Origin: a virus
IMG/VR virus record: IMGVR_UViG_3300034375_003182
Span: 18,756-82,755 of that record
Direction: 5' to 3' (one strand)
Length of the DNA stretch: 64,000 nt
Shown here one piece after another: positions 31,534 to 64,000 of the stretch. The position numbers and the translations under genes are program-made. A model generated the notes under the pieces. That model was not told where the DNA came from, did no database searches, and saw only the letters and a list, made by a program, of their open reading frames with translations. The stretch's first letter is position 1. Every line of letters begins with the position of its first letter.

Positions 31534-31556
31534 TTTAAAAATATTTATAATTATAG

Positions 31557-40812: not shown

Positions 40813-41213
40813 TATTCAATAATTTTATCAATGTTAATAATTTGTTCTCCAGTAATATCTGCCGGTAAACAGTCCTCTGGTATAGCATGCAGCTCAATTT
40901 CAGTTTCTTCTAATAGTAGTTTATCTACTTCAGCCAACTGTTCTTTTCTTGCATCCACAAGTTCTTTATTCTCTTCTTCTAACTTAGCTATTGCTTCATC
41001 ATCTTTCTGATTCATAAGAACCTGCATTTTTTGTGATAGTCCTAAAAACTCTTCACTAGGCTTGCTAGCTTCTTCGATGTCCTTAAGTTCTTCTTGTATT
41101 ACTCTAATATTCTTAGATACTAATAATCCAAACTTAACTCCTTTCAAGGAATTCACTGCACTTAGTCCGTTAAATAATTCAACAAACTCACCATTTTTCA
41201 TTTTTACTTTCAT
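40812..41213 (-). CDS. Hypothetical helical protein (possible fibre assembly chaperone)
   Basis: 133-aa acidic helical ORF directly after a fibre-like gene. Confidence 0.5.
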   Translation of the reverse strand: MKVKMKNGEFVELFNGLSAVNSLKGVKFGLLVSKNIRVIQEELKDIEEASKPSEEFLGLSQKMQVLMNQKDDEAIAKLEEENKELVDARKEQLAEVDKLLLEETEIELHAIPEDCLPADITGEQIINIDKIIE

Positions 41214-41238
41214 TGTCTATATAATTAATTGGTTAATG

Positions 41239-42765: not shown

Positions 42766-42790
42766 TTTATTTTATTTTATTATTGTTATG

Positions 42791-47161: not shown

Positions 47162-47163
47162 AA

Positions 47164-47682
47164 TTAACAGTTACATCCACAGTGCCCAGCACACATGTCC
47201 TGAGCTGTTAGATATTTTCTTTTTGCATTGTCGATAACAGCTTGTATTTGGTCTATAGTACCTTCTGTATCTACAGTAGCGAGTTCTGACTCTGCTACTT
47301 TTAGTAATAAAAATATTTTTTGTGCTTCAACAAAATGCGGAGAGCATTTGTTACAATCACAGTCGCAGTCTAATAGTTCTTCTATTTTGTGAGCAATACA
47401 GCATAAAACATCGCATGCCATTAGCACTGCTGTTTTTGCATATATTTCTCCATTAACAAAATGGTCAATAACAAATACACCATTACCTCCACCAGCTTCT
47501 TCTATTGTTACAATTCTTATATTGTCTAGTCCTCCTGGAAATGTATAGTTAAACGATCCGTTAGGACCAGTTACAACTACTTCATGATTAACTGGTGCAG
47601 TTTTTCCGCCTACAGATTGTGGATTTGTAACAGTGATTATAACTTTATTACAATCTGCTGTTTGAGATGTATTTATTGCCAT
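47164..47682 (-). CDS. Cys-rich putative tail hub protein
   Basis: CDVLCCI...DCDCDCNKC...CAGHCGCNC; position after capsid-accessory genes as in crAss-like phages. Confidence 0.5.
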   Translation of the reverse strand: MAINTSQTADCNKVIITVTNPQSVGGKTAPVNHEVVVTGPNGSFNYTFPGGLDNIRIVTIEEAGGGNGVFVIDHFVNGEIYAKTAVLMACDVLCCIAHKIEELLDCDCDCNKCSPHFVEAQKIFLLLKVAESELATVDTEGTIDQIQAVIDNAKRKYLTAQDMCAGHCGCNC

Positions 47683-47697
47683 TGTTTTATTTTTTAT

Positions 47698-47738
47698 AAA
47701 AAAAGACCTACAGGGGAAACTAGTCCCCTGTGAGTCTT
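47698..47738 (-). terminator. Intrinsic terminator
   Basis: Stem aagac..acagggga / tcccctgt..gtctt with 6-nt loop, followed on the minus strand by a T run (A tract 47698-47704). Confidence 0.75.
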
Positions 47739-47752
47739 ATGTTGGTATTAGC

Positions 47753-48262
47753 TTATGCTAATTTTCCTGTAAGTACGTAATCTATGTACAAAGATACTCT
47801 ACCCGCTGTTAAATCGTGAGTAGCACCTGTTACTAAAATTACTTCCTCGTTAGCAGTAGTTACGTGATACGTAGCTGCTTTCAAAATTGCTTCTGCGTCA
47901 TCAGTAACTGCAGCACCTGTAAGTGCTAAAAAGCCAAGTGTAGGAGATTGTTTTGCTCCTAAATTTGCCATACCATCAGAAGTATTATTTAAAGCTACTG
48001 CTGGAAAAAAGATTGCTTTGTTAGAACCCGCTGATCCTGTTGCAACACCTGCAGTACCAAGACCAAAAGATACAGTCTGTGCTGCATTTTCTCCTGATAA
48101 AGCTGTGTGTACAAAAGCTACACAGTTAGTAATCATTGCACCTTCTGGAATTATCACAGGAGTTGCGCATCCTGCGGATACAGCTTCTGCTACCGTCCCC
48201 ATCTCTGCAAGGTCAAATGTAGCAACCGCAGTATATTTGTTATTTAAAGGATTATTTGCCAT
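47753..48262 (-). CDS. Putative capsid decoration / accessory protein
   Basis: 169 aa; IIPEGA.IT....V.TA...DLTAGRVSLYIDYV single beta-sandwich pattern; followed by a terminator. Confidence 0.55.
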   Translation of the reverse strand: MANNPLNNKYTAVATFDLAEMGTVAEAVSAGCATPVIIPEGAMITNCVAFVHTALSGENAAQTVSFGLGTAGVATGSAGSNKAIFFPAVALNNTSDGMANLGAKQSPTLGFLALTGAAVTDDAEAILKAATYHVTTANEEVILVTGATHDLTAGRVSLYIDYVLTGKLA

Positions 48263-48287
48263 TTTTTCTAATTTTTAAAAGTTAATA

Positions 48288-49226
48288 TTATAAGTTAACA
48301 GAACTAAATCCTACTGAGTTCAAATACGGGTTAAGCGCTCCCTCAAATGCTTGAGTTGAAGTAGCTGTACCATCATCAAGTGCGATATAGATTTCCATTA
48401 AGTTATCTACGCCATTGATTCCTGAAGTTGTACTTCCGTCTTTTGTAGCTACAATGTGATACATGTCATAAACATTACTTGTAACACTGTGAAGTGTTGG
48501 TTGAATTGGTAACTCAACTCTGTTGTAGTATCCAAATCCAGAACCTTGTAATTCTTCTTCAAATTCTCTGATGTAAAAACCATCACCTACACCTCTAGAA
48601 CCTGGAGTTGAATAAGTAACTGCCATTGTAGTAAGACATAAAGCTTGATCATTTTCATAAGCAAAGTCCATGTGAACTAATTCTTCTTGTATAGAACCGT
48701 CAGCTTTAGCTTCACCTTTTTTCAAACCTGTGATAGATAAAACTCCTGAAGCGTTTGATGCTGGTGTAGTTACTTTCATCCAGTGTGCTGGATCAGCGTT
48801 AATAGCATTTTTAAAAGCAACTGCAACGTCAGTTACAGAACCACTAGCTGCAATTTCTACTTCATAAGATTTAAACTCAAATGGCTCAGCGCCGTTAGTT
48901 AAGTTTATAACTTTAAGTGTATAGTTTGTAACTACTGCTGCGTTATTAGTAGTAAATGTTGCTACAGCAACTTCTGCTGCTTGAGCTACACCTGATTTAC
49001 CGCCATATGCTACAACGTTTTTTCCTTTAATCCAAGGGCTTACAATTTGCGTACCCCCTGTTCCTTGTACAAATCTGATACTATCAGAATCTGCAACTGT
49101 ATCACCAGGAGCTAAACTTACGGGCCCGTCAGATGATAATTTTTGTATATCAATGCTACCGCTTGCAGTTAAACCATTAGTAATAGTTCCTACAGCTGTA
49201 CCATCTCCAATTAATAATTGTCTCAT
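48288..49226 (-). CDS. Putative auxiliary capsid / structural protein
   Basis: 312 aa; PGSRGVGDG..I...E....G...Y and YD.Y.I pattern; third gene after MCP as in the conserved crAss block. Confidence 0.55.
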   Translation of the reverse strand: MRQLLIGDGTAVGTITNGLTASGSIDIQKLSSDGPVSLAPGDTVADSDSIRFVQGTGGTQIVSPWIKGKNVVAYGGKSGVAQAAEVAVATFTTNNAAVVTNYTLKVINLTNGAEPFEFKSYEVEIAASGSVTDVAVAFKNAINADPAHWMKVTTPASNASGVLSITGLKKGEAKADGSIQEELVHMDFAYENDQALCLTTMAVTYSTPGSRGVGDGFYIREFEEELQGSGFGYYNRVELPIQPTLHSVTSNVYDMYHIVATKDGSTTSGINGVDNLMEIYIALDDGTATSTQAFEGALNPYLNSVGFSSVNL

Positions 49227-49255
49227 TTTTTTATATTTTAGTGAGATTAATAATT

Positions 49256-50419
49256 CTATTCATTCTTTGTAACTTCTCCAATCGCTGTTTTATATCTTGG
49301 ATCAGAGATAGCTTCTAAAATGCTACTTACCGTCATAGACACAATTTCTTGATGCGTATGCTCTGGTAATTCGCAATTTACCCCCAAAGGTAAGGATATT
49401 TCTTGTGGCTTTCTGATGTACGTTATTTTTAGCGTATCTATTATAAATATATCACTAGTGTATACGTCTATAGATCTACCTCTCACTGTTGTTAATGGAG
49501 AAGTGTGCTTTGTTGTATTAAACGGGTCATCTAAAAGCTTAAATATGTCGTCTTGTTGAGAGAATCTATTTCCCTCTTGTATTCTTGCAGAAAACTCTAA
49601 TGGCTCTCTTCTTTCAGAATATGTTGTATCCATAACCTGTCCTGCTTGTTGTGCAGGTTGTGTAGCCCCTGCTACAGGATTACCTACTGCATGGCTAACA
49701 TTTCCTGCAGATAAATCATAGTTAAACCAGTCATGCTGATCTGTATCTACAATAACTACAAACTGTCCTGGAAAGTTTAGTGTTTCATATTCTTCCCAGT
49801 ATACATCAAAGCCAGGTCCTGAATTATCTAATATGTCTTGTTTTACCGCCTCTATATTTGACGGGTATGATTGTGGTGTCCAGCCTGTAGCTAGTAATGT
49901 AGCTGATGGACTCCATATTGAAGCAGATGTAGGATCTGTGCCTGTAATGTCTGCTACCATTTCTATACTTTGTACAAATGCTGTAGAATCTCCAAGCTGG
50001 TTATTAAGTACAAAATTGTTTAAATCTAATGTAAAGAACGAAATTGCTGGTGGATTAACTAAGTTGTATGATATTGTTTTACAATTATTAATCCAAAGCT
50101 TTGACATCTGATTTACCAAGTACATATAATCATTTGGTAATTGAAATGTGTCAACAAATATTCTTGTCTTTAGTTGCTCCTTAAATGATACAGGAGCTTC
50201 ATACTCGCGCACAAGCGTACGTAAGTCATCTATTCTTTTTTGGGATTCTTCAAATCCTTTTCTGTATAGGTTATTTCTACCATACTTGGTATTGATAAAC
50301 CTAAACATATTTTTGTTTAATTCAATGTCTATCTCTTCGGATAGCAAACTGTCAGCTTGGAGTGAATTAATCTTATCCACTCCTTGCTGTACAGCTATAT
50401 GCATTTCAGTTACATTCAT
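49256..50419 (-). CDS. Ring / head-tail connector protein (conserved crAss gene)
   Basis: EMH......DKI.S....L.EEID..LN, GFEESQKRIDDLRTLV, LP.DYMYLV, YIRKP, CELPEHTHQEIV motifs. Confidence 0.8.
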   Translation of the reverse strand: MNVTEMHIAVQQGVDKINSLQADSLLSEEIDIELNKNMFRFINTKYGRNNLYRKGFEESQKRIDDLRTLVREYEAPVSFKEQLKTRIFVDTFQLPNDYMYLVNQMSKLWINNCKTISYNLVNPPAISFFTLDLNNFVLNNQLGDSTAFVQSIEMVADITGTDPTSASIWSPSATLLATGWTPQSYPSNIEAVKQDILDNSGPGFDVYWEEYETLNFPGQFVVIVDTDQHDWFNYDLSAGNVSHAVGNPVAGATQPAQQAGQVMDTTYSERREPLEFSARIQEGNRFSQQDDIFKLLDDPFNTTKHTSPLTTVRGRSIDVYTSDIFIIDTLKITYIRKPQEISLPLGVNCELPEHTHQEIVSMTVSSILEAISDPRYKTAIGEVTKNE

Positions 50420-51228
50420 TAAGATGCTAATGTTTTAAGTTTTGCTCTTAAAGTAGTTAATTTTCCTGAGTTCTTTTTGTCATTCAGGTGTATAACAGTG
50501 TCATCCATTGTTTCTCCTAATACCTCATCAATAAAGATAACTTGGTTACCTATCTTTCTTAGTACTCCTGCAGATACCATTGTCTCGATTTCTGCTTTCA
50601 GTTCTAAGTGCTTATCTTGACATACTTTGATAAACTTCTTAGGTGATTTTTCCTTAATATCATAGAGTAAGTTTTCTACTTGTTCTCTAGTCAAAGTTTT
50701 AGGATCAATACTTCCTAATAGTCTAAACACTCTTCGCATTTGTTTTTCATCAGTAGATACTTTGATAAATGCCTTGTCAGCATCTTTCTTAACCTGAATA
50801 TCATTATTACGCTTCATATCCTTCTTAGCCAGATCTTGAATGTAAAAACGCTTGTTTGAATCTGCGTTCATTTCTTCTTCTGTTAATGCTACGTGAGGAT
50901 GCTTCAATGCAAAATTATATTTGATAAAATCCGTAATGTCAATAGGAGATCCATCTTCTGTCTTTCCTACTTCTAGTTCTACACCTTCAAAGCCTACTGG
51001 TATGGTAAATTCCGACCAGAATTTTTTGGTGTGTTTTGGCCACTCCATGTGACCGCCATCTACATCTAACATACCATCTAAATATTTCTTCTCGTCTTGT
51101 GGACTAAAAGGTTTTAGTGGTTGTCGATTTACATACACGCTACTTAGTCTTCTAATAGCGCTTGCGTTAATTTCCTTTGGCAAATGATTATTAATCGATT
51201 TTGCTCGTAAATAAACTTTTTTACTCAT
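50419..51228 (-). CDS. Conserved crAss protein downstream of MCP
   Basis: 269 aa; FW....I.V...G..L and P....D.IKY.F...HP.VA pattern; conserved position. Confidence 0.7.
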   Translation of the reverse strand: MSKKVYLRAKSINNHLPKEINASAIRRLSSVYVNRQPLKPFSPQDEKKYLDGMLDVDGGHMEWPKHTKKFWSEFTIPVGFEGVELEVGKTEDGSPIDITDFIKYNFALKHPHVALTEEEMNADSNKRFYIQDLAKKDMKRNNDIQVKKDADKAFIKVSTDEKQMRRVFRLLGSIDPKTLTREQVENLLYDIKEKSPKKFIKVCQDKHLELKAEIETMVSAGVLRKIGNQVIFIDEVLGETMDDTVIHLNDKKNSGKLTTLRAKLKTLAS

Positions 51229-51284
51229 AATCTAGTACTTTTAAAGTGTTAATTAGTGGATGTAAAGTATAACTCTCCAATATT

Positions 51285-51317
51285 TTAATAGAAGAAGTGG
51301 GGGCACTAAGCCCCCAC
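51285..51317 (-). terminator. Intrinsic terminator after major capsid gene
   Basis: Perfect 8-bp stem gtgggggc / gcccccac (51297-51317), 5-nt loop, then TTCTTCTATT on the minus strand. Confidence 0.8.
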
Positions 51318-51377
51318 GACCTCAACCAAAAACCAATATATAGACTTGCGAATGCTCGCCTCTTTTAACTCCCTAAA

Positions 51378-52820
51378 TTAGGAAGCTACACATTGAATAT
51401 CCAACGAAGTATCAAATCTACGTAAGCAGATACCCGCTGTCTTCAACATGTGTACACTTGCACCATCAACGTCTGATGCTCTTGCGTCTGAGCCAGAGAA
51501 ACCTCTAGGAACTACAGAACCTGCAACACACCAACGCATCATCTCACGACCTTTCTTAGAGATCATTGTAAGATTAGCTTGTCCGTCATAGTTAGACTGG
51601 TCTACAAATACCATACGGTATGACTCTAATGAGTAACCAGTAACTGGGTGCTTTCCACGAGCCTGTGCAACAGGACCATGATCAAATAATGGTAATTTAA
51701 CCACATTGATTACGTGTCCATCCACATGCTCGTAAGTAGTGAAGTAACCAGTCAATCCTAAGTTACGTCCGCTACCTGTTATAAATCTATTCTCACCACC
51801 TACTTTGAAAGTGTTAGACGAGAAGTGAGACTTAAGTGCTTCATCAAATTCACGAGCTCCACCTGTACCTGTGTACAATGTAACTTGCTTTTGATTAGCA
51901 TCTGTCATTTGATAGAATAAGTCACCAATGATGTTTTTCAACTTAGTTTCAGTCATAGTTGAATAAGTATCAGTGTTTACGATCTGCTCGAATAAACCAG
52001 GACCTACAATAACAGGCTGTCCATTCTCATCTTTCATAAACGTGTTACCGTTTGCATCATAAGTTTTTTGTCCGTACCAGTAGTACATCTCACACTCTTC
52101 TTTAAAGTCAAGCATGTGCTGATACTCTTCATAATCCATCCAAAGGTTAGTAGAACCACCACCTTTAGTTGGTAAAGTAAACTCAGCTACATAATCTTTA
52201 GCATGTCCTGACATGTGGTAAGATTTACGTACTGTAGTAATTTTGTTTCTCACTTTACCTGGTGCTTGCCAGTTAGAAGCGTTACCTCTAGAGAAGTCAA
52301 CACCTACTGGAGCATATAGTTGTGCCCAAAGATCACCTGCAGTAAAACCTGAAGTTAATACTGTAGCTGCCGCTGGATTTACTAATTGTAAAGTGTATTC
52401 CCAACCAGAACCACCTACATAAGGCTTAGGTTCTGCCATAATACGTGCTAGTTCACCCGCAGAGTTTACTAATACGTAAGGAAATACAAATCGTTTATCA
52501 GGGAATACCAACGTAAAAGTTGATCCTCCTTGTCCTAAGTTAGTGCCCGCATTTGTCACAGCCAATGGACGAGTTCTCAATTTGTGGGTTGCCACACGAT
52601 ATTCATACTCTAATCTGTCGATTGATTGAACGTTACCAGCTCCTTCAGTTAAGAAAGATAATGGGAAACGCTTATCATCCTTACCAGACAAGTGTGTGAT
52701 AATCGGAGAAAGTTCAGTTGGTTTTGACAAAAGAGCATTTGCCAGACTGTTCATGTCTGTCATTTGTGAATCATTATAAAACGTCTTTTGAACGCTTATA
52801 TTTGTTCCTGTTAAGCTCAT
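51378..52820 (-). CDS. Major capsid protein (crAss type)
   Basis: 480 aa; TD.NSL.N, FPL..LTEG, W.YTLQLV, RN..T..RKS, G.GL.EQI, LYTG.GG..EF motifs; position after portal and scaffold; downstream terminator. Confidence 0.9.
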   Translation of the reverse strand: MSLTGTNISVQKTFYNDSQMTDMNSLANALLSKPTELSPIITHLSGKDDKRFPLSFLTEGAGNVQSIDRLEYEYRVATHKLRTRPLAVTNAGTNLGQGGSTFTLVFPDKRFVFPYVLVNSAGELARIMAEPKPYVGGSGWEYTLQLVNPAAATVLTSGFTAGDLWAQLYAPVGVDFSRGNASNWQAPGKVRNKITTVRKSYHMSGHAKDYVAEFTLPTKGGGSTNLWMDYEEYQHMLDFKEECEMYYWYGQKTYDANGNTFMKDENGQPVIVGPGLFEQIVNTDTYSTMTETKLKNIIGDLFYQMTDANQKQVTLYTGTGGAREFDEALKSHFSSNTFKVGGENRFITGSGRNLGLTGYFTTYEHVDGHVINVVKLPLFDHGPVAQARGKHPVTGYSLESYRMVFVDQSNYDGQANLTMISKKGREMMRWCVAGSVVPRGFSGSDARASDVDGASVHMLKTAGICLRRFDTSLDIQCVAS

Positions 52821-52872
52821 AATTATCTAATTTTATTTAAGTTAAGTTGCATTTTAAAATTGCCATTTTTAA

Positions 52873-53985
52873 TTAAAAGTTAAGATCTAAATCATCTAAG
52901 TCTACTTGCTTACTCTTGCGCCTTGACGCTTTTCGTGCGCTTTTAACTCGCTCTTCATTTCTAGAAATTCTATCTCTCAACGATTTAGCATTTGATGTCT
53001 TAGCTTTCTTCTCTACCAATTTTGATAAATCAAAACCTTTGTACATTAAATAATCAATCGCGAGTTTAGTTTCTATTTCTGCTCCTGCGTGATCTAAATC
53101 TCGCTGTGTCCTACCATCCTGTGACACTGGTCGAGAGAGGTATTCAAAAAATTTGTTTTTCTCTCTCTTTGGAACCGTAATGCCTGCAAACTCATCTGTT
53201 TCTTCAATAGTTTCATACACACCATTCCAAAATTCTTCTTGCTGCTCTTGTTGCTGTTGTCTTTCTGCTTTTCTCTGCTGTACTAGCTGAGCTCTACTAT
53301 TCTCTTGCATCTTAGACAGTGCGCCTTGTGCAGCTTTTGCTTTATCTAATAACTTGCCGTTATCCTGGTAATCCTCAAGCAGTTCATTTATAAACTCTTG
53401 TTCGTGACCTTTTGTGGCAAAGTAATCAGACAAAATAGCTTTTTGACTTCTTACATCGTCTTCTGCAAGCTCAACCTTACCGTAATCCAAATTAGGATCA
53501 TAAGCTTGCATAAAGTCTTGAGAGTCTCCTCCGTTAAGAACGTATTCAAGATGATCTTTAACTAATGGAAAGTTTTCAAACAGATTATCTAACTGATCTT
53601 CTGCAATTTGTTTTCCTACATCTTGAGTCATAGCTAACAAACCTTCTGTCGTATCATCATACTCTTCGTCAGTTTCATATCCCAACTGGTCTAGTATTTC
53701 AGATACTACTGTATTAGCTACAGGTTCTCTATCATCATCTTCATCCTCATCTTCATCGTAGTCTTCGTCTTCATCTTCATCCTCTTCGTTATCATACTCC
53801 TCTTCTTCCTCTACGTCTTCAGACTCTTCTAATTCTTCTGCATCCGCGTCAAGCTCTTCAGCTTCATCACTTGGGTTGTCTATTGCGAGATCGTCTGCTA
53901 CTTCTGAGCTTTCTGATCCTCCTGTAATAACATCGTCAAATGAAATATCATCCAAACCGATGCCTTCTTCTCCTGGTTCTATCAT
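52873..53985 (-). CDS. Acidic scaffold-like protein preceding MCP
   Basis: 370 aa with long Asp/Glu tract, then coiled coil; conserved position in Crassvirales. Confidence 0.7.
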   Translation of the reverse strand: MIEPGEEGIGLDDISFDDVITGGSESSEVADDLAIDNPSDEAEELDADAEELEESEDVEEEEEYDNEEDEDEDEDYDEDEDEDDDREPVANTVVSEILDQLGYETDEEYDDTTEGLLAMTQDVGKQIAEDQLDNLFENFPLVKDHLEYVLNGGDSQDFMQAYDPNLDYGKVELAEDDVRSQKAILSDYFATKGHEQEFINELLEDYQDNGKLLDKAKAAQGALSKMQENSRAQLVQQRKAERQQQQEQQEEFWNGVYETIEETDEFAGITVPKREKNKFFEYLSRPVSQDGRTQRDLDHAGAEIETKLAIDYLMYKGFDLSKLVEKKAKTSNAKSLRDRISRNEERVKSARKASRRKSKQVDLDDLDLNF

Positions 53986-54006
53986 AATCTATATATTAAT
54001 TTTTTA

Positions 54007-54014
54007 CAAAAATA
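54007..54014 (-). promoter_or_regulatory. Possible Bacteroidota -7 promoter element for scaffold/MCP
   Basis: TATTTTTG (TAnnTTTG) 21 nt upstream of the ATG in an AT-rich intergenic gap; no clear -33 TTTG. Confidence 0.45.
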
Positions 54015-54073
54015 GTTAATTATACAAGTAATATCACATACATATAAGTTTTTGGATATGTCTTTATTATATA

Positions 54074-56518
54074 TCACTTGCGTTTCTTTTTTCTAAGTTT
54101 TTTTCTGTATCCTCCATATCTATTTCCAGCAATCAGTTTGCCTTCTGGAGTTAATGCTTGCTTAATTGTGCTGACTCCTTCAATAACTTTGCCTCCGACG
54201 TTCTTTGCTGCTTCTGGCGTAGATTCAACTAAATCAGTGTCTGTAAATTTATTAAGTAGCTTAGTTCCATATTTAACCAAAGGATTTTTATCACCTAATA
54301 AAGATACAGTTCTTAAAGCTGCACTATCATAATCTTTATCATACAAATCTTTACCTATCTTAAATGTATCTTTAATCTTTGCTAGTTGAGGAACAACATC
54401 TGTTGCTTTCTTAAAAGCTTGAAGCCTGTTATCCACAGTTCCTTCACCTTTAATCTCACTTTGCGCTTGATTGGCTATAATACCATATGCTTGCGGAACC
54501 GCCATACCTTTCATTGTATTATATGTTCCTGATAATAAACTCCCTGTTTTTGATTTAGCAGTTTGCATTAAAGTTTGACCAGCAGGAGATTTACTCATAA
54601 TATTAGTAAAATCTGTTGCAGCTTTAGTTCCATACCTTTTTATAGGAGCTATTAACTTTTGGGCAGTTGGTTTTAATATATTTGTATAAGCAGATTGTGA
54701 ACCTGATCTTACTAACTGTTGACCTGCATATCCTAGCCCTAACTCTGCCCCTATAATTCCAGCGGTCGGTAACCCTAAAGTTGCTAAAGCAACCTTTTCT
54801 CTACCGCTTTGTTGAACACCTCGTATTACAGGATTAACTTCTTGTGCATATGCTGCGGATTCTAAGGTAGAAGGACCTGAGCCTCTCTCTGTTACAATCT
54901 CTACCTCTGGAAGCATTTGCATATTAAGAGTTGGTTCTCCCTTTTCATCATAAGTAGTGCTAGCTACCCTGCCCTCTTTATATGCTTTGTTATATTCTTT
55001 ACTTCCATATGTAACATAATCCATGTCATATGGAGTAACTTGGTCATTACCTCCTTCTTGAAACTTCTGTGGATATTTTGGTTTGTACCCTCCGCTCTTT
55101 CTCTTACGAAGTGCTGGTGCTACATCTTTATATTTTTCTGCAAAGTATCTTGCATCTTGCTCACGATCAAACTTAATAGCTTCATCTGTTCTAGGACCTG
55201 TGTATTGTAAACTACCACCTACATCTTGTATGTTTGGTATAGCAGACTTACCATAGCTACCCATATGATGAGTTCCTGTTCTACCATCACCAAAATCATA
55301 TGATTTATCAGTTGGCTTTATCATTCGAGATATGGCTGGGTTATTGCCAAATTCATTTTCCATGGCAATCTTTGCTTTCATCATACCCGTCATACCTTCA
55401 TTACTTGGTATAGCTCTAGGACCGTCTGTTCTACGAGGACCCCCATCTTGAAAAGTTTTAAGTCTTATTACTGCCTTTGCAGATGAGGCAAGAGCTTTGG
55501 TAGCTACACCAGCATTTTTACCAGGCTGCACAAGATCCAAAATGTCCCCTTTAGTAAGACCCATCTTTTTTCTATACTTTTTTATTCCAGAAAGGTCTTG
55601 ACCCATAAGAATTTTAAAAGCATCACCTTGTCCAAAATCTTCATTTTCAGACATTGCTTCTGTATATGGAGAGCTTAAGGTATTTATAAGTCGTGTAAAC
55701 TCTTGGACTTCTGCGTCAGTAAGCTTATCGAGTGCAGGAAGCACCTTATCCATAGCTTTGTAGACTGGAGCATTTGTCATTTCCCTACCACTCTTCCATG
55801 TATAGTCTGAGTACTCAGGAATATCTTTAAAATCTTCATAGTTATTTAGTATATCACTACCTACAAAATTTTCTTGATCAAGCCTTCTTTGATCAAAAAG
55901 ATAACTCAATCTTTTGGCTTGTAGTTGCTCAAATTCTTCTTCACTTAGAGGTTTTACGTACTCTAATTTGGCTGCTTTATCTGAATACTGCTGATAGGTT
56001 TCGTTTTGAATTTCTTCAAGATCAGATTTAAACACTAGTTTGCCATCAAACTCAACATAATTTTGCATCTCATGTGGCTTTATGTTAGGAATAAATTCAT
56101 AAGAATCTTTTACTACATCAAGATTTTTAAAAGCGTCAAAAGTTCTTTCAGATATTACTGGCTTGTCATCATAACCTGTAGGTTGCTTAGGATTAGGATC
56201 TTTAGTACCACCCTTTTCCATCTTCTGTATAAGCATACCTTCTGCTGGTCCTGATGGTAAGTTTCTCAGGCCAGGAGGTGCACTTTGATAAGATTGTACT
56301 AAGTGTCCTTGATTATCTTGCACAGGAGGTCGTGCGCTTGCAGGGTTTATTTGTGGAGGGGATGCTGGGGGTACAGGCATTTCAGGCATCTGCTGCTGCA
56401 TAGCTACACCTTCAGGACCTTGCGGTTGCTGTTGAGGTTGTAGAATTTCAGCAAGACTGCCTTTATAATTTGACTTGATGGCCTCTTTCAAGACCTGCAT
56501 CTGCTCCTCGTTCGTCAT
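54074..56518 (-). CDS. Modular hypothetical protein inserted between portal and scaffold genes
   Basis: 814 aa, start overlaps portal stop; Gln/Pro-rich N-terminus, segments delimited by xxxGG motifs, hydrophobic helix, poly-basic C-terminus. Confidence 0.7.
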   Translation of the reverse strand: MTNEEQMQVLKEAIKSNYKGSLAEILQPQQQPQGPEGVAMQQQMPEMPVPPASPPQINPASARPPVQDNQGHLVQSYQSAPPGLRNLPSGPAEGMLIQKMEKGGTKDPNPKQPTGYDDKPVISERTFDAFKNLDVVKDSYEFIPNIKPHEMQNYVEFDGKLVFKSDLEEIQNETYQQYSDKAAKLEYVKPLSEEEFEQLQAKRLSYLFDQRRLDQENFVGSDILNNYEDFKDIPEYSDYTWKSGREMTNAPVYKAMDKVLPALDKLTDAEVQEFTRLINTLSSPYTEAMSENEDFGQGDAFKILMGQDLSGIKKYRKKMGLTKGDILDLVQPGKNAGVATKALASSAKAVIRLKTFQDGGPRRTDGPRAIPSNEGMTGMMKAKIAMENEFGNNPAISRMIKPTDKSYDFGDGRTGTHHMGSYGKSAIPNIQDVGGSLQYTGPRTDEAIKFDREQDARYFAEKYKDVAPALRKRKSGGYKPKYPQKFQEGGNDQVTPYDMDYVTYGSKEYNKAYKEGRVASTTYDEKGEPTLNMQMLPEVEIVTERGSGPSTLESAAYAQEVNPVIRGVQQSGREKVALATLGLPTAGIIGAELGLGYAGQQLVRSGSQSAYTNILKPTAQKLIAPIKRYGTKAATDFTNIMSKSPAGQTLMQTAKSKTGSLLSGTYNTMKGMAVPQAYGIIANQAQSEIKGEGTVDNRLQAFKKATDVVPQLAKIKDTFKIGKDLYDKDYDSAALRTVSLLGDKNPLVKYGTKLLNKFTDTDLVESTPEAAKNVGGKVIEGVSTIKQALTPEGKLIAGNRYGGYRKKLRKKKRK

Positions 56519-58782
56519 TAACTCTTACGCTTCTTGTTTGCTTCCCTTTTTATTTCTTCATTAGCTCTGTTAGATCTAGCGTCCTCATCAGCTTCTTTTG
56601 CCTTAATAGCAACCTCTTGTGACTTAACTTCTTGATCCATCATAGCTTTTTCTAGATTAAACTTGCCAGCATTTTCAGCCATACCAGCTTGTATCATTGC
56701 AATATCAATCTTGTTCTTTCTATCAAGCTCGTTGTTTTGATTTGCATTATCTAGCTCTTGCTGTTTCATTTGAGCTTGTAGTTGTTCTGACTGCTGCTTA
56801 GCTTGCATTTCTGCTTGCTGTTGCTGCTGCTGTAATTCTTGCATAGACTTCTCAGCTTCTTTCAGCTTATGCTTAATCTCAGTAAAGCTTTCTTGTTCTA
56901 GTAGGTCTGCCATAGCAGATGCTGGCATTCCGTTTTGTATCATAGACTGAGCCATTTGTCTGATAGTATCTATCTTTTCTTTCTCCTTACCAGAGTTAGT
57001 TACAAATATACCGTAGTCTGCTTCTAAGTGTGATAACGGATCTACAGTTAAATACTCTACAGTTCCATCAGGCATTACATATGCCCCGCTCTTACCTGTC
57101 AACCAAGCTTCTTTAGAGTAGTCAAGTAATGCTTGTAAGTCTCTTTGCTCTAAGTGCTCAAACTTTCTAAACATATCTTCTGTAATATGTGAAGATTGTA
57201 CAATAGCTTGCTGTGTAGATCCTTTACCTTCGTATTGTCCTACACTACCTTGTCTTTGTCTGTTTACACCAGATAGCTTTTCCCATTCGTTTAGTATAGA
57301 CTCTAGCAAAGTAATGTATTGAGATATAGTCTTGATTGACATATCTAATACAGACTGGTGCTGTGGATTTAGTGCAATACCTTCTTTGTTGTAATCTACC
57401 CACGCTATACCTGTACCTTCTACGTAGTACATAAACTTATCCATGTCCCACTTCTTTGGTATCATGTTAATATCAAACTGTGCTATAATATCTTTTGATC
57501 TTGCAATAGCTAGTTCTAATCTATACTTGTAAATGTTGTAGTTCAACTGGTAGGGTATACCTAGTGACACTAGAGATATGTTCTTTGCATTTATGTCTGA
57601 ATATCGTCTACCATTTATAGGTAACTTACAAACAGATGGGTCATTCATTGTGTTTCTTTGATTAGATACAGGATGTATATCTACATACATTCTACCATCT
57701 ATTCTTGTGCCCTGCCATACTTCATTTACCCAAGTGTACTTTACTTTAGCACCCATAGCTTTCATTTCTGCAGGCATTCTAAAACTTTCATCAACAATCT
57801 CTTCCTCTATTGTACCAGTCATTGGATCTGGGTATGTCAAAAATCCTATACGTTTTCTTGATTTCCAGTATACTGTTACAACTTCTATCAATCTATTTCT
57901 ATATGCATTCTCATCCTTAGATGTTTCAGCTCGTCTAAATAGTAAGTATGAATCAATATCTGATTGTCTAGGCTGTTCTAGCTCTAGTATTTGTTCGGGT
58001 GTTAGTAGGTCATAGAAGTGATCAACTACTGTTGAGACATGTACGTACTTACGAACTAATGCCCAGTCTCCGTCTTCTACAAACTCTAGATCTGGATCTT
58101 TGTCGTAATCTACGTCAAGAGGATTAAGTATATCATAGAAAGGTTCTCCATTACGAACACCTCTCTCTGTGTAAACTTCTCCAGATATTAGATAGTGAAA
58201 CCAGCCTTTCTGTAATTTATCATACACTTCTGCATTTTGCATTATGTAATTCATAGACTTCTGACCTATAATAGCTCTGTTGTCTACGTAACTTCTTTCA
58301 AAAGACTTTAATATATCTTCAGGTAATTGTATCTGCTGCTCTTGCATTTCTTCAGGAGCAATACCCATCTGCATCATCTTATTAGCAAACTGTGCCTGCA
58401 TATTTTGCATAAACACCATCTGCTTTGCTTTTTCTTTTTCAGATACTACATCCTCGTTAAGGACTGCTACGGTATAATTGAGAGGTCGTTTAGACTTCTC
58501 ACCTAATAGAAGATCAATGATAGGCTTGATAATAGGATAGTTACGCATTTTAGAGGGGAAATTATTGCGGGACTTGCCATATGGGGCAAGAACGTAACGA
58601 TAGTCTTCCTCTTCAATTATACCATTGTAGTAGTCATACAGTGTTCTGATGTAGTCTCTTCTCTTAGATACACCTTGATTAGATAAGTCGATAAAAGCTT
58701 CAACACAAGCTTCTTTCCACTTTTTATTTTTCTTTGATAAAGGCAGCTTTTGCTGCGGTATTTTTTCTCCCCCTAGATACAT
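56518..58782 (-). CDS. Portal protein
   Basis: IPQQKLP..KK...W, NYPIIKPIIDLLLGE...RP, PYQ..YNI, SGV.RQR.G motifs; C-terminal Gln-rich coiled coil; follows terminase. Start set to ATG 58782. Confidence 0.9.
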   Translation of the reverse strand: MYLGGEKIPQQKLPLSKKNKKWKEACVEAFIDLSNQGVSKRRDYIRTLYDYYNGIIEEEDYRYVLAPYGKSRNNFPSKMRNYPIIKPIIDLLLGEKSKRPLNYTVAVLNEDVVSEKEKAKQMVFMQNMQAQFANKMMQMGIAPEEMQEQQIQLPEDILKSFERSYVDNRAIIGQKSMNYIMQNAEVYDKLQKGWFHYLISGEVYTERGVRNGEPFYDILNPLDVDYDKDPDLEFVEDGDWALVRKYVHVSTVVDHFYDLLTPEQILELEQPRQSDIDSYLLFRRAETSKDENAYRNRLIEVVTVYWKSRKRIGFLTYPDPMTGTIEEEIVDESFRMPAEMKAMGAKVKYTWVNEVWQGTRIDGRMYVDIHPVSNQRNTMNDPSVCKLPINGRRYSDINAKNISLVSLGIPYQLNYNIYKYRLELAIARSKDIIAQFDINMIPKKWDMDKFMYYVEGTGIAWVDYNKEGIALNPQHQSVLDMSIKTISQYITLLESILNEWEKLSGVNRQRQGSVGQYEGKGSTQQAIVQSSHITEDMFRKFEHLEQRDLQALLDYSKEAWLTGKSGAYVMPDGTVEYLTVDPLSHLEADYGIFVTNSGKEKEKIDTIRQMAQSMIQNGMPASAMADLLEQESFTEIKHKLKEAEKSMQELQQQQQQAEMQAKQQSEQLQAQMKQQELDNANQNNELDRKNKIDIAMIQAGMAENAGKFNLEKAMMDQEVKSQEVAIKAKEADEDARSNRANEEIKREANKKRKS

Positions 58783-58788
58783 ATCCTG

Positions 58789-58796
58789 CAAAATTA
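58789..58796 (-). promoter_or_regulatory. Possible Bacteroidota -7 promoter element before portal
   Basis: TAATTTTG(CA) immediately upstream of the ATG; no clear -33 element. Confidence 0.35.
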
Positions 58797-58859
58797 ATAT
58801 TTTTTATACACACATTAACGAGGTGTATACATTTTAAACTATTATTTATATATATAACA

Positions 58860-60851
58860 CTAGCGATAATTCTTATCAAACCAATCGTTTGATGCATTAT
58901 CTTCTAGTATCTCTTTAACCTCCGCATTGTATAACTCTCGTGTATGGTACATCCCTACCATCAGTGCCATTACACGGTCAAAGTTACCCTTATGATTAAA
59001 CTTTATTAGCTCCTGTAAAAGACCTAAATCATATATCTTATGTAAGTTAAGTGTTACCTTATCTCCATCATCAGATCTTACAGCGTTCAACCAGTCTCTT
59101 ATATACAACTCACCCTGCCTCTTCCTAGCTTCTGTTGTATGCATACCAAAGTTACGTTTTACATTTCTAGATCTTAGTTCTTTCTTATCTAACATCTCAA
59201 ACTCTTCCTGTAATCTGTGTAACTTTCTGTGCTGCTTTGCGTATTGTATTACAGCACCACGATCGTTCTCAAATCCTATCTTAGCATTGTAATAGTCAGC
59301 TAGCATAAATAAATTTTTGTTATATTCGTCCTGCGTGTGTGGCCTACCTACATAGCTAGCAACAATTAAATCATCAGGCTTTGATATATTATTTATTCTC
59401 TTTATCACATACGCAGCACCAAGAGAACTGGAGTCTGCTGATTGGTTTTGTCCGTACGGGTCATGGCAAACTAGATATAGGTTATGTGGAGTTTGTCCCT
59501 CCTGGTTTCTATAAGGACCTTCGTAGAGAACAATGGCTCCTTCCAGATTATCTTCTTTACGATGTGGAAATCGAAGGATTGGCCTAGCATCTCCATCAGG
59601 CTCAAACTTTATTCTATTTTCTTTACCATAATACAGTTTACCTGCAGTACCTATAGCATGTAGCTTGTTTGCTTTTACCTTATTATATTGCTCTTGTAGT
59701 GATGATATATCAAATAGATTTGAAGATACTTGTAATGTAGCTTCTGCCGGGCACATAGGATGTTCTGCTATATACTGATCATATGCTTTTGGATCATTAG
59801 TACCTTTCTTTTTGTTCCTGTTTCCTTCTTCAAAATCTATAGCCTTATCTACAAAAGAGTTACCATCATCATCTATAAACCCTTCTAAGTTCTCAAATAT
59901 TGGCACAAAGTACCCACATTCTGTGCCCATAGCACCATCATCCCACACATTCTTAAAAGCTAAACAGTCATACGAATCTGGATTGTAGAATAGCTCTTCC
60001 ATACCTTGAAAATCTGATCCTTCTGTACCACCTGTACCAAATGCAATCATTGTACCTAATGTCTTACTACCTTGACGCATTGTTGGCATAGCAACTTCCC
60101 ATGCTTTTAGTAGTCCTGGAAATGACCCAGCCTCTTCAAAAAATATAAGTTCACCTGCCTTACCACGGACTTTGTCTGGATCATCTTTTAGTGACACGCC
60201 TATAATTTGTGATTTCATTCCCATCTCTACAAGTGCACCATTTACATTCTTTTTGTACCCAGATTGTTTGTGCATTTCTCTGTCTCGTAGTCTTGGCTGC
60301 GTCCATGCTGTATTATCATCTACAAATGACATAATATCCCAAGCTTTGGACAGTAGTCCATCCCCAATCAAGTACTCTTTCTGCCCTGCAAAAACATAGT
60401 TTTTACTATTACGCATATGAAAGTAGTTACGTACAAGCATAGCAGCAGCTTTATAAGAAAATCCTTTACGACGTGCTTTTAATACCGTCATATGCTTGTT
60501 TTCTCTCCTACATCTATCTACTGATAAGAAATATTTCCAATCTCCGTCGTAAAATGCTGGGAATGTACGCTCTCTTCGCGCTATAATTGTACCATCTGGT
60601 AGTTCTTCATCAACAGATCTGTCAATGGGGCAGTAGTTTAGATAAAAATAATGATTACCTGTTATAGTTACACCATTGTGAGTGTAGCCATACAGACATC
60701 TACGTCTCTCTTCATCCCAATATTCAAAGTAAGGCTTTGTTCCTGGTAATGCATCTGTATAGTAACCATTTTTTAAGTACTTATTTGCAGCTGGAGCTAG
60801 TCCTCTGGTGCGCTTAAATACTTCTTTTTTAAATTCAATAACTCTTGACAT
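58860..60851 (-). CDS. terL: Terminase large subunit
   Basis: Walker A LKARRKGFSY, Walker B IFFEEAG, FGTGG coupling motif, nuclease CHDPY and NFDRVMA. Confidence 0.93.
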   Translation of the reverse strand: MSRVIEFKKEVFKRTRGLAPAANKYLKNGYYTDALPGTKPYFEYWDEERRRCLYGYTHNGVTITGNHYFYLNYCPIDRSVDEELPDGTIIARRERTFPAFYDGDWKYFLSVDRCRRENKHMTVLKARRKGFSYKAAAMLVRNYFHMRNSKNYVFAGQKEYLIGDGLLSKAWDIMSFVDDNTAWTQPRLRDREMHKQSGYKKNVNGALVEMGMKSQIIGVSLKDDPDKVRGKAGELIFFEEAGSFPGLLKAWEVAMPTMRQGSKTLGTMIAFGTGGTEGSDFQGMEELFYNPDSYDCLAFKNVWDDGAMGTECGYFVPIFENLEGFIDDDGNSFVDKAIDFEEGNRNKKKGTNDPKAYDQYIAEHPMCPAEATLQVSSNLFDISSLQEQYNKVKANKLHAIGTAGKLYYGKENRIKFEPDGDARPILRFPHRKEDNLEGAIVLYEGPYRNQEGQTPHNLYLVCHDPYGQNQSADSSSLGAAYVIKRINNISKPDDLIVASYVGRPHTQDEYNKNLFMLADYYNAKIGFENDRGAVIQYAKQHRKLHRLQEEFEMLDKKELRSRNVKRNFGMHTTEARKRQGELYIRDWLNAVRSDDGDKVTLNLHKIYDLGLLQELIKFNHKGNFDRVMALMVGMYHTRELYNAEVKEILEDNASNDWFDKNYR

Positions 60852-61084: not shown

Positions 61085-61588
61085 CTACGAACTATATTTG
61101 TTAACTACAACTCCTCCGCGTGTATTTGTATTAACTTGCTCTTGTTTAGCAACCTGCTCCTCTAATTTAGATAATCCATTTACTACATCCCCCATCTTAG
61201 ATAAGTTGGCAACCAAATCCTTTGCATGAAATATAGGTCTACCATTATCATCCATTAATGTAAGATCTACAGTTTCAAAATACTTTTGTAGTTTTATTAC
61301 AGATGACCTAGCAGCATTTAGTAATTTTACTGCAGATGTTTCTTTTAATTTTTTATATACATCACAAGCCGCTTGCACTTTTGTAGATGCTTTAGATTCT
61401 TTACCATATACACCTAACATTACTTCATTATGTCTAGAGTCTAAATCATATACTGCATACGGTGACTTATGATCACACATAAAGTAAACATATGCAAGTT
61501 CTTTTGCATTCAGATTCTTGAACTCCAAAATACTTTTAGCATATGGAGAAGGCACTGCTACATTATCGACTATCTCTAGTAATTCCAT
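61085..61588 (-). CDS. Conserved crAss protein upstream of terminase (candidate small subunit)
   Basis: KELAYVYFMCD.KSPY...AC..Y...T...LL pattern and C-terminal RGG; position just before terL. Confidence 0.55.
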   Translation of the reverse strand: MELLEIVDNVAVPSPYAKSILEFKNLNAKELAYVYFMCDHKSPYAVYDLDSRHNEVMLGVYGKESKASTKVQAACDVYKKLKETSAVKLLNAARSSVIKLQKYFETVDLTLMDDNGRPIFHAKDLVANLSKMGDVVNGLSKLEEQVAKQEQVNTNTRGGVVVNKYSS

Positions 61589-61781
61589 TTATTATATCTC
61601 TTCTTTCTTTTTTAGAGTGAAACTTTCCAAAATATGGTAGCCTAATAGAGTCAAATTCACCTCCTGACATAACTTTAGCCACATACTTAAACTGACTGTT
61701 TACAATTCTTTCTATCTTCTCTAACGGTAAGTTATACTTTGTCGCTAGTGTTTGTATTATCTCCTTTTTTGACTTCGCCAT
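61563..61781 (-). CDS. HU/IHF-like DNA-binding protein
   Basis: KKEII..LA.KYNL......IV.SQF...SIRLPYFGKF matches the HU fold. Confidence 0.7.
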   Translation of the reverse strand: MAKSKKEIIQTLATKYNLPLEKIERIVNSQFKYVAKVMSGGEFDSIRLPYFGKFHSKKERRDIINGITRDSR

Positions 61782-62031
61782 TATCTTGTGCTTTCCATTT
61801 GTTTATAGGACATGTAGTTGTTTTCCATTTTGCTTTATGCTCTATCAAACATCCGCACTTACCACACCTCATTTTATCTCTTACCAAGTATTCACAACTG
61901 TTACAGTCAGATAACCTTTGTGTGTAATCTGTTTCAGACACATTAGGTGACCCGTTTGCTACATACTTAGTAAGATCTCTACTAAAACTTTTTGCCATTT
62001 GCCATAAACTTGGCATTTCATCTTTACTCAT
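61732..62031 (-). CDS. Cys-rich putative Zn-binding protein (DUF6171-like)
   Basis: RL..C..C......RC..CGC...KA......CP..KW. Confidence 0.65.
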   Translation of the reverse strand: MSKDEMPSLWQMAKSFSRDLTKYVANGSPNVSETDYTQRLSDCNSCEYLVRDKMRCGKCGCLIEHKAKWKTTTCPINKWKAQDNGEVKKGDNTNTSDKV

Positions 62032-62682: not shown

Positions 62683-62920
62683 CTTTAAATTCTATTGTAG
62701 CTCGACCATCTTCCACAACTATCTGTGCTGTTTTAGATTGTCTGTTAAATTCTTCTATATAACCAACCACATCATCTCTGGTACACAGGAATGATAGGAA
62801 TACAGACATCTCTTTAGCTGCTCTAGCTGTAGAATCACGCAATTCATTTGTTTTTTGCGTATGCTCTATCAACTCTAAGTAGTCGTCTAGATTTATTGTA
62901 ACTGTGCCAGGGAGCTTCAT
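62654..62920 (-). CDS. Hypothetical protein
   Basis: 88-aa ORF, start overlaps GroES stop; TVTI.LDDY.EL pattern. Confidence 0.6.
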   Translation of the reverse strand: MKLPGTVTINLDDYLELIEHTQKTNELRDSTARAAKEMSVFLSFLCTRDDVVGYIEEFNRQSKTAQIVVEDGRATIEFKDDKNKISDE

Positions 62921-63195
62921 TAGAATTTACCTAATACTTGAAACTCACTAACAAACAAATACTGTACTTCATCAATATGAATCAGCATTGCCTCTGTATT
63001 TGGGTCTACCATAATCTTGTCACCCTTTTTACATTGCGTAACTTGCGGGCCTACCGCCAATACTTCTACTATGTTTGTTTGTAATGCTTTTGCAGTTGCA
63101 TCGTCTAAGATAATTCCTGACTCTGTAGTTTTTGAGTCTGGACGTGGTACAACTATCCACGCTCCGAAGGGTTGAAATGTAAATTCCTTTGCCAT
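62920..63195 (-). CDS. groES: Co-chaperonin GroES (Cpn10)
   Basis: FQPFG..IVV......TTESGIIL...VEVLAVGP....KKGDKI...YLFVSEFQVLG; start revised to ATG 63195. Confidence 0.88.
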   Translation of the reverse strand: MAKEFTFQPFGAWIVVPRPDSKTTESGIILDDATAKALQTNIVEVLAVGPQVTQCKKGDKIMVDPNTEAMLIHIDEVQYLFVSEFQVLGKF

Positions 63196-63220
63196 TATTT
63201 CTATAATTTGGTTAATACTG

Positions 63221-63253
63221 CAAAGGTATAACAAAATACTTTATAAATCCAAA
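63221..63253 (-). promoter_or_regulatory. Bacteroidota primary-sigma promoter for groES / late operon
   Basis: TTTG (63250-63253) - 21 nt - TACCTTTG (63221-63228), matching TTTG-N19-21-TAnnTTTG. Confidence 0.8.
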
Positions 63254-63259
63254 TGTTTT

Positions 63260-63540
63260 GTGAAGAACTTCACTAATAGATACACCACACCCCTAGGCGT
63301 TTGACTATTTCAGTTGGAATTTTACCGCTGGCAGTGCTGTCTTTTGGACTACCTAAGGACACTAAAACTGATGTTAATTCATCACACCTACCTCTGTGTA
63401 ATGTGCCCTAACCGTTGGCTATATCCGCCTTTTTAGAAGCTATTGGAGAAAACTCTAACCTTTATTTAAGGTCTACAATCCAACGTCTGACCCCATAACT
63501 ACCTCTCGGCCCTCTGGGGTGATACACGTATTGTGTGCTT
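63260..63540 (-). ncRNA. Candidate structured non-coding RNA / long structured leader
   Basis: No ORF in track, GC-richer than flanks, directly downstream of a consensus promoter, several nested inverted repeats. Confidence 0.5.
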
Positions 63541-63547
63541 CTGAATG

Positions 63548-63578
63548 CAAAACTACTAAAAAATTTTTAACTACCAAA
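63548..63578 (-). promoter_or_regulatory. Second Bacteroidota primary-sigma promoter
   Basis: TTTG (63575-63578) - 19 nt - TAGTTTTG (63548-63555). Confidence 0.75.
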
Positions 63579-63667
63579 ATCTTTGAGAGCGTAGGGGTAT
63601 TATGAAACACACCCCACCTTAAGTAGAGTATTAACAGTACCCCCGGGTACACAAAACTAAATTGATT

Positions 63668-63964
63668 ATGGAAAATATTCCAGGTGTAGTAGTAGGTTCA
63701 GTAGCTCGTTCCTATGAAGGTAACACATACTACAGAGCTACAGCAAAGACAGCAGAAGGACTGATTTCCTTTAAAATAGCAGAGCGTCCTGCTTCAGGAC
63801 AAAATGTATTGCTAGACATTTACAAGAAAGGCACCAAGCTACCATTTGGAGATGGTTCTATTCTTGAGAAAGATTTGGCAGTATGTAAGTTAGATAGCTT
63901 CGATATTGAGGTTGTTAAGACAGCAGACGCGTTGCTAAAAGAGCTAGAGGGTATTACTTTGTAA
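63668..63964 (+). CDS. Hypothetical protein, first gene of the divergent arm
   Basis: 98 aa from ATG 63668 after an A-rich leader; beta-rich, possibly OB-like. Confidence 0.65.
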   Translation: MENIPGVVVGSVARSYEGNTYYRATAKTAEGLISFKIAERPASGQNVLLDIYKKGTKLPFGDGSILEKDLAVCKLDSFDIEVVKTADALLKELEGITL

Positions 63965-64000
63965 TACTCTTTATCTATCTACACAACATTAGTGTGTGAG

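Follow-up and report, generated by a model that had tools for sequence, protein, structure and literature searches.

A conserved two-domain structured RNA at the head of the virion arm in uncultured marine crAss-like phages

Among RNA antiterminators, put of phage HK022 is about 70 nt long with two stem-loops, and EAR of Bacillus is about 120 nt long. An operon of reportedly over 32 kb is under the control of conAn2, which belongs to the conAn antitermination system of plasmid pLS20 and other conjugative elements. In the available portions of PMC8191782, put and EAR are described as lying just downstream of a promoter, folding, and acting in cis without a dedicated protein. The same portions state that RNA antiterminators act only in cis and that conAn2 regions are 260-600 bp long and stand at the head of a conjugation operon, where conAn2 follows the gene of its partner ConAn1, is poorly conserved (30-40% identity), and relies on a GC-rich stretch and stem-loops. 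The present study concerns an RNA of comparable size and operon-head position, encoded on the minus strand of a 64,000-nt stretch of the IMG/VR virus record IMGVR_UViG_3300034375_003182 (positions 18,756 to 82,755 of the record; hereafter the window, with all positions numbered from its first letter unless the contig is named). Compared with about 265 nt and 12 helices at this locus, put and EAR are much smaller and simpler. In contrast to conAn2, the RNA occurs in a phage of Bacteroidota, has a tightly conserved two-domain fold, and has no partner gene that could be seen; no homology to conAn2 is implied.

The general kind to which the RNA belongs, large phage RNAs without a known role, has precedents, and its newness is at the level of the family. 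GOLLD (RF01998) and ROOL (RF03087) are two to three times longer and, like the RNA described here, are large, ornate, covariation-supported phage RNAs without a known function. Both form RNA-only multimers according to the available part of a recent report (bioRxiv 10.1101/2024.12.08.627333), whereas self-assembly is not supported for the present RNA, and none of three divergent members of its family matched Rfam at E values up to 10. Highly abundant and persistent non-coding RNAs without a determined function are also described for the marine Cellulophaga crAss-like phage phi14:2, which has a Bacteroidota host; in the accessible text, they are placed in an early region between g004 and g006 and not at the head of the virion arm (bioRxiv 10.1101/2020.03.07.982082).

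The RNA lies in a 466-nt minus-strand intergenic stretch, with a GroES/Cpn10-like gene on one side (62920-63195, minus strand; Pfam Cpn10, E 1.7e-7; PHROG co-chaperonin GroES, E 7.8e-12) and a divergent open reading frame (ORF) of 100 amino acids on the other (63662-63964, plus strand). A prediction made from the sequence alone (the original prediction) had proposed a multi-junction RNA of an unrecognised class in this place, with its own promoter and within an ORF-free and GC-richer segment. The G+C content was confirmed (44% in the RNA segment, 37% in the genome), and 95 homologues supported a fold of 12 helices in two domains by covariation. The stretch almost certainly holds a module the size of a gene that specifies a structured RNA of two domains and about 265 nt, which represents an uncatalogued family confined to a clade of uncultured marine crAss-like phages.

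Homologues were collected with the GroES-like protein as a query against viral contigs, which returned 51 loci. The intergenic element was found by blastn in 38 of the 51 groES loci at 69-99.6% identity, and it was not found by blastn in any of 12 loci with distant GroES relatives. An exact two-motif scan of viral contigs identified at least 115 stretches, and nhmmer identified 149 copies among 167 loci; the later members were gathered with the motif pattern of the P4 loop itself. The collection included 95 distinct full-length sequences that formed 61 clusters at <92% identity, with pairwise identities of 50-100% across the family (median 63%). With two models of the family, R1 and R2, exactly one copy per source was found in 96 of 96 sources, with R1 scores of 160-337 bits. 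The window itself (63260-63548, minus strand) scored 336.6 bits with R1 and 283 bits with R2, a match by construction, as it was included in the seed. Full-length matches were also found in the 68 sources outside the R1 seed, at 160-285 bits.

The fold of the lone sequence (-79.3 kcal/mol) was compared with that of shuffled sequences (-68.1 +/- 5.1 kcal/mol; z -2.2), and three of 200 shuffles equalled it. Folding was thus better than in shuffles, but only modestly so, and by itself it proves little. Inspection of the first alignment by eye showed compensatory changes. Among the 28 sequences of alignment A1, the hand-built structure was paired in 95.7% of the cells, compared with 87.4% after shuffling. 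For the 96 sequences of alignment A2, which contains the 95 distinct homologues, a model of 61 pairs was paired in 94.7% of the cells, compared with 82.1% in shuffled alignments and 34-46% in slid controls, where partners were shifted by 1-3 columns. Changes on both sides were observed in 35 of the 61 pairs, and the covariation score was 0.411, which none of 500 shuffles reached, versus 0.201 for shuffles. As A2 was fitted to ten of the twelve helices, these figures flatter those ten; the helices Pa and P10 were outside the model that made A2 and were still paired in 90.5% and 85.5% of the cells, respectively. The base of P5 carries an invariant G-U pair in all 95 sequences. On the opposite strand, G-U pairs would be A-C mismatches, and the RNA was therefore assigned to the strand of groES.

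The alignments thus point to two domains, each with its own closing helix, in a structured core of about 264 nt (63279..63542) bounded by the first P1 base and the last P10 base; all helix coordinates are given for the minus strand. As the core ends near 63279, the RNA is about 265 nt long; the proposal of a structured RNA of about 290 nt was therefore right as to its presence and too long as to its extent. Domain 1 (63435..63542) is closed by P1 (63542-63537 with 63440-63435), which is paired in 90.2% of the cells and has changes on both sides in all six pairs. It holds P2 (63536-63533/63527-63524; 98.3%), P3 (63520-63515/63495-63490; 91.8%), P4 (63484-63479/63447-63442; 100%), and P5 (63473-63468/63462-63457; 99.6%, with changes on both sides in five of six pairs). 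Inside P3, a 3-bp stem is capped by GAGA, a GNRA loop. The large internal loop of P4 flanks P5 and has the sequence GGAUUGUAG ... UAGAGUUUUCUCC (63445..63481), which is identical in all collected members, the later of which were gathered with that pattern.

Domain 2 (63279..63425) is closed by P10 (63425-63420 with 63284-63279), in which five core pairs are formed in 97-100% of the members. It holds Pa (63413-63411 with 63332-63330), which has only 3 bp in the subtype of the window, a three-way junction of P6 (63409-63403/63362-63356; 99.8%), P7 (63399-63396/63387-63384; 97.1%), and P8 (63383-63380/63373-63370; 100%, with the loop AAUUAA), the variable hairpin P9 (63349-63347/63341-63339; 95.4%), and a tail (63286..63327) with conserved GAAAU and UGAAAU motifs and a G-run, which is GGGG here and GGGGG in most members. 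The hairpin lengths of P2 and P9 vary among the members. No consistent helix was found in the tail, where RNAduplex runs on 94 tails gave varying partners at +0.2 to -13.5 kcal/mol. At four positions, G-U wobble would allow the G-run of the tail to pair with the CCCC strand of P3 in 92-100% of the members, a possible alternative conformer without covariation support, and the GGU after P6 can compete with Pa for GCU.

Only two of the eight pairings named in the original prediction were supported by the family: 63356-63362 with 63403-63409, which is P6, and ACCTT/AAGGT, which is P5. The other six paired in 63.9% of the cells compared with 62.6% after shuffling, so that most of the drawn helices were wrong. 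Specifically, the pairing proposed to close the ends (63288-63293/63516-63521) reached 70.7%, and its CCCC strand covaries instead with the nearby GGGG in P3; 63413-63418/63480-63485 reached 45.2%, and its GUUGGA pairs locally with UCCAAU in P4 in 100%; 63330-63335/63348-63353 reached 60.1%, and the long-range CAGTT/AACTG pairing reached 77.1%. The GAG/CTC hairpin overlaps P4 and, as it never varies, carries no information. The terminal GTGAAG/CTTCAC hairpin lies just past the core (63260..63273, minus strand), is not followed by a U-run, and is limited to the subtype of the window, with 50.3% pairing across the family.

Several other candidates were set aside. A long-range GUUGGA/UCCAAC helix appeared in the first RNAalifold run, which missed P1, and the wider family favours the local P4. 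A hairpin around a GUAUA loop paired in only 58.1% and was replaced by the closing helix P10. The mutual information of the tail columns mainly follows the two subtypes, with one column correlating equally with several others, and was not used. The AAUUAA loop of P8 was considered as a self-pairing contact and dropped, as single-base variants occur. Additionally, searches of the genome for complements of eight conserved single-stranded motifs, with up to one mismatch, returned only chance-level matches and the opposite strand of the gene itself.

The same alignments bear on whether the conserved unit is an RNA at all, or instead a DNA site such as an operator or packaging site, or a small protein gene. 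Its location inside the control region between the two arms of the genome would suit a DNA site, and some closed antisense ORF of at least 25 amino acids is present in 92 of the 96 members. Against this stand the compensatory changes in 35 pairs and the strand-specific G-U pairs, as well as hairpin lengths that change by non-multiples of three. A closed sense ORF of at least 25 amino acids was found in only 39 of 96 members, with scattered starts that coincided in at most 23 of 96 at any column. No alignment-anchored antisense frame is open across the family (minima of 1-17 amino acids), and two antisense frames are about equally open, which makes their openness an effect of composition. The segment is thus free of credible ORFs on either strand, as had been predicted, and no conserved small ORF explains the region. 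We consider a DNA site or a protein gene extremely improbable.

The family was then sought outside the viral contigs and in known collections. No match to R1 or R2 was found in the 12 loci with distant GroES relatives, in the phi14:2 locus, its first 12 kb, or its whole record, or in the phage's own replication arm; judged by these models, the non-coding RNAs of phi14:2 are not homologous to the present family. A blastn search of 50,697 deposited phage records with the 466-nt intergenic region and a subtype-B member as queries gave no match. One exact two-motif pattern had no matches in one genome each of 185,579 prokaryote species, which excludes near-identical copies only. The 4227 models of Rfam 15, which include GOLLD, ROOL, riboswitches, 6S, tmRNA, RNase P, and the phage pRNA, were compared at E values up to 10 with positions 62800-64000 of the window, where the only match was TCL6_1 (14.6 bits against a cut-off of 60), off the RNA and on the other strand. 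The divergent member L120 matched only RgsA (11.5 versus 88.4 bits), and L104 matched Plastid-psbA-1 (17.6 versus 54.3 bits) and P24 (12.1 versus 100 bits). The Rfam matches in the three divergent members are at chance level, in agreement with the class being unrecognised. The RNA was not described in the literature searched; absence from print is not certain, as fragments may be included in the catalogue of Fremin et al. 2023 (PMC10690425), which, in the portion available, lists 8,495 candidate RNAs of 29-151 nt from IMG/VR.

The genome is composed of two divergent arms, a plus-strand replication arm of 19 kb and a minus-strand virion arm of 62 kb. The replication arm encodes a family A polymerase, DnaB-like and SNF2-type helicases, a 5'-3' exonuclease, a uracil-DNA glycosylase, and a DnaA-C-like helix-turn-helix (HTH) protein. 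The virion arm is a minus-strand block of 41 ORFs (contig 19462-81989) that begins with the RNA and groES, its first protein gene, and contains the terminase; groES, terminase, portal, and virion genes are all located on the arm headed by the RNA, and the proposal that it heads the late operon was borne out in the sense that it leads this co-directional block of virion genes. The large terminase shares about 40% identity with its counterparts in gut crAss-like phages. The phage belongs to an uncultured marine branch of the crAss-like group. The first and last 440 nt of the contig (positions 1-440 of the contig; 63561-64000 of the window) are 95.9% identical with an exact core of 99 nt, and the record therefore closes on itself. 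Either the assembly is circular, or two strain variants were combined into a terminal redundancy; at the source, the record is labelled linear. The replication arm begins with a gene at contig 105-404, of which the ORF at 63662-63964 is a variant copy. Between the divergent units, about 15 nt before this first replication-arm gene, lies a 6+6 inverted repeat (63637-63650; GTACCC, a 2-nt spacer, and GGGTAC on the minus strand), which could be an operator or a hairpin-type promoter element. Just past groES, two small minus-strand genes (61563-61781 and 61732-62031) encode an HU/IHF-like DNA-binding protein and a Cys-rich protein, respectively, with matches to Pfam Bac_DNA_binding (E 4.3e-7) and DUF6171 (E 1.7e-10). 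No tRNA or tmRNA gene was found by ARAGORN in the whole window.

Promoters in Bacteroidota follow a consensus pattern of TTTG, a gap, and TAnnTTTG. Two matches to this host-type pattern flank the RNA on the minus strand at the places where consensus promoters had been proposed: one at 63548..63578, with TTTG at -33 and TAGTTTTG at -7, and a second at 63221..63253, which serves groES. The number of matches in the window (six, compared with 3.1 expected) is not significant alone, because at least six occurred in eight of 100 shuffles. In 87 of the 96 members, the first paired base of P1 is preceded by a TAnnTTT[GA] -7 box whose end lies 3-7 nt away, and by eye the box is displaced by the alignment edge in three more. 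The six remaining members carry the RNA without its own promoter, abutting the stop codon of a small upstream ORF on the same strand. Hence, it is strongly indicated that a host-type promoter places the transcript start at the foot of P1. Some relatives (L004, L006, L008, L010-L012, L002/L003, and L028-L034) encode a small Cys-rich ORF of 61-85 amino acids, ending in ...DPDCENCGS, on the same strand just before the RNA; in four relatives with this ORF, the RNA lacks its own promoter, and its first helix directly adjoins the stop codon of the ORF. Such same-strand Cys-rich upstream ORFs are absent from the window.

No terminator-like site was found in 62800-64000, a 1.2-kb stretch of the window, and transcription should therefore continue into the downstream genes. 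Among the relatives, 655 of 681 downstream ORFs have the direction of the RNA and 271 of 324 upstream ORFs the opposite direction, as counted with a crude ORF caller. At least 79 of 95 relatives have a GroES-like ORF downstream of the RNA, and in 62 it is the first ORF. The gap between the RNA and the next gene varies from 0 to several hundred nt (0-600). For 20 of 95 relatives, the next ORF begins no more than 20 nt from the RNA and no -7 box intervenes, so that the RNA is made as an operon leader and the gene is transcribed through it. A TAnnTTTG box is present 19-46 nt past the end of the RNA model in 59 of 95 relatives, typically when groES follows. The suggestion that groES does not need the segment as its leader was thus only half right: a second promoter is frequent, and nothing stops transcription between the RNA and groES. 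The RNA is, on strong indications, the first thing transcribed on the 62-kb arm.

The site directly behind the RNA is an apparent hotspot of gene insertion. Cargo genes without their own promoter sit between the RNA and the groES promoter in a number of relatives (L002-L008, about 11-13 nt after the RNA; L028, L031, and L013; L091, L078, and L062; L087; L125, L145, and L071). These include a 102-aa protein starting with MKYLL, proteins of 117-147 amino acids starting with MKLIKHKG, a basic protein of 71 amino acids, and ORFs of 268-409 amino acids.

The putative function of the RNA, advanced here tentatively, is cis-acting processive antitermination by a folded leader. The leader would act on the polymerase that transcribed it and stay with the elongation complex, making the host RNA polymerase resist terminators inside the long virion arm, while transcripts from the second promoter, which lack the RNA, would stop early. 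As in described antiterminators, the RNA is preceded by a promoter and followed by a long operon, with no terminator ahead of the operon's genes. Host-type promoter matches on the minus strand of the window numbered only five, two of which are at the head of the arm; this argument from few promoters is limited, as the scan misses promoters of any other type. Terminator-like sites in 40001-60000 numbered 18 on both strands compared with 9.0 +/- 3.0 expected, and GC-rich terminator-like hairpins with U-rich tails were identified inside the virion arm at 51317-51297 and 47731-47710 on the minus strand. For phi14:2, the available part of its report describes transcription of middle and late genes by the host RNA polymerase (bioRxiv 10.1101/2020.03.07.982082). 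Rather doubtful, and less probable than antitermination as such, is the stronger claim that an RNA-only device rides the host RNA polymerase through the 62-kb virion operon and represents the first known processive antiterminator of Bacteroidota or their phages.

Several observations weigh against antitermination. Terminator-like sites were not enriched in 1-20000 (nine compared with 10.8 expected) or 20001-40000 (five compared with 8.0). In size and intricacy, the RNA far exceeds put and EAR, and its two self-closed domains and GNRA-capped stem are more suggestive of an RNA that stands alone or forms part of a ribonucleoprotein. With the second promoter in 59 of 95 loci, groES and the later genes are not dependent on the promoter of the RNA, and the fixed position could be merely inherited gene order. 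No partner of the conAn1, NusG, or Q type was found among the genes scanned: Pfam searches of 26 replication-arm and 10 RNA-adjacent ORFs, together with PHROGs searches of 10, identified replication genes, the HU-like, DUF6171, and GroES proteins, and no RNA-binding or antitermination domain. On gene order only, a conAn1-type gene is not located immediately upstream, as in 63 of 88 loci the closest ORF on the upstream side is divergently oriented.

The stand-alone appearance of the fold would be explained if the RNA acted in trans. The leader would be cut in the AU-rich stretch after P10, and a compact RNA of 265 nt would accumulate, bind a host or phage protein or self-assemble, and take over or protect a host function during infection. 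Such a processed RNA is possible and nearly as likely as antitermination. The core ends in closing helices, with the start of P1 and the 3' boundary of P10, as is typical of stable RNAs; its 12 helices, sequence-invariant loops and junctions, and GNRA-capped stem suit an independent molecule, and the second promoter allows an mRNA without the RNA. The abundant and persistent non-coding RNAs of phi14:2 offer a parallel. On the other hand, no terminator in 62800-64000 defines a 3' end, read-through is required for the promoterless genes right behind the RNA (20 of 95 loci), the genes scanned included no candidate partner protein, and the single-base variants in the palindromic loop of P8 argue against loop-loop self-pairing.

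Contigs of four RNA libraries from four studies, all seawater or marine metagenomes, contained parts of the RNA, two of them at >=99% identity, which is consistent with an RNA acting in trans. One contig at >=99% identity bridges 63162-63312, from the 3' part of the RNA into groES, and fits a leader, as do the six members in which the RNA lacks its own promoter. These contigs show presence only, and not transcription, ends, levels, or discrete species, and their depths were not used for ranking. In the four runs, no contig spans 63541-63680 by the predicted start, and the contigs lack a common stop; such a hole proves nothing, and no conclusion was drawn from it.

A 5' leader with invariant junction and loop nucleotides and length-variable P2 and P9 could also be a sensor of the riboswitch type. 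One or both domains would bind a small molecule or ion that reports the host state, and alternative pairing would set the flow of transcription or translation into the virion arm. The competing pairings described above, those of the tail G-run with the CCCC strand of P3 in 92-100% of the members and of GGU against Pa for GCU, would fit such switching, but they rest on G-U tolerance only and not on covariation. Furthermore, the locus has no recognisable expression platform, with neither a terminator stem and U-run nor a sequestered start site; the stretch up to the next gene varies in sequence and in length (0 to several hundred nt), or a separate promoter intervenes; and no riboswitch model of Rfam matched at E values up to 10. 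A sensor function is accordingly regarded as improbable.

The position of the RNA at the divergence of the arms raises a further alternative, for which the closest described system is ColE1 RNA II, a promoter-driven, folded replication primer that is a few hundred nt long, contains a G-rich segment, lacks a terminator, and serves a family A polymerase. The RNA described here is likewise promoter-driven and folded, has a G-run and no terminator, and lies at a candidate origin in a phage with a family A polymerase. As an origin RNA, its transcript would prime leading-strand synthesis at the divergence, or would open it through an R-loop, with the fold positioning the G-run for a persistent RNA-DNA hybrid. 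The cumulative GC skew has its minimum at the divergence and RNA locus (contig ~81-82 kb; window ~62.3-63.3 kb) and its maximum at the convergence near contig 19 kb. This is compatible with an origin at the RNA locus, but the skew also tracks gene orientation and therefore does not locate an origin. The DnaB-like helicase, 5'-3' exonuclease, and DnaA-C-like HTH protein of the replication arm would suit such a mechanism, as would the conserved G-run near the 3' end followed by AT-rich DNA. However, the G-run is just 3-4 G in the subtype of the window, nothing requires transcriptional priming, and, in contrast to ColE1, neither an antisense regulator nor an RNase H site is known here. A role as origin RNA is therefore considered unlikely.

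CrAss-like phages are among the most abundant viruses of Bacteroidota, both in the gut and in the sea, and to our knowledge the control of their long virion operons is largely unknown. The family described here occurs on well over a hundred viral contigs from the ocean, in every case where the replication and virion arms meet, and adds a large structured RNA with unusually clear covariation that is absent from Rfam. If it acts as an antiterminator, it would be by far the most elaborate RNA antiterminator and a new way to steer the host RNA polymerase, and it would account for the expression of the whole virion arm from a single control region next to the likely replication origin. Should it prove to be a stand-alone RNA, it would join the few large RNAs of unknown function, while being small enough for structure work.

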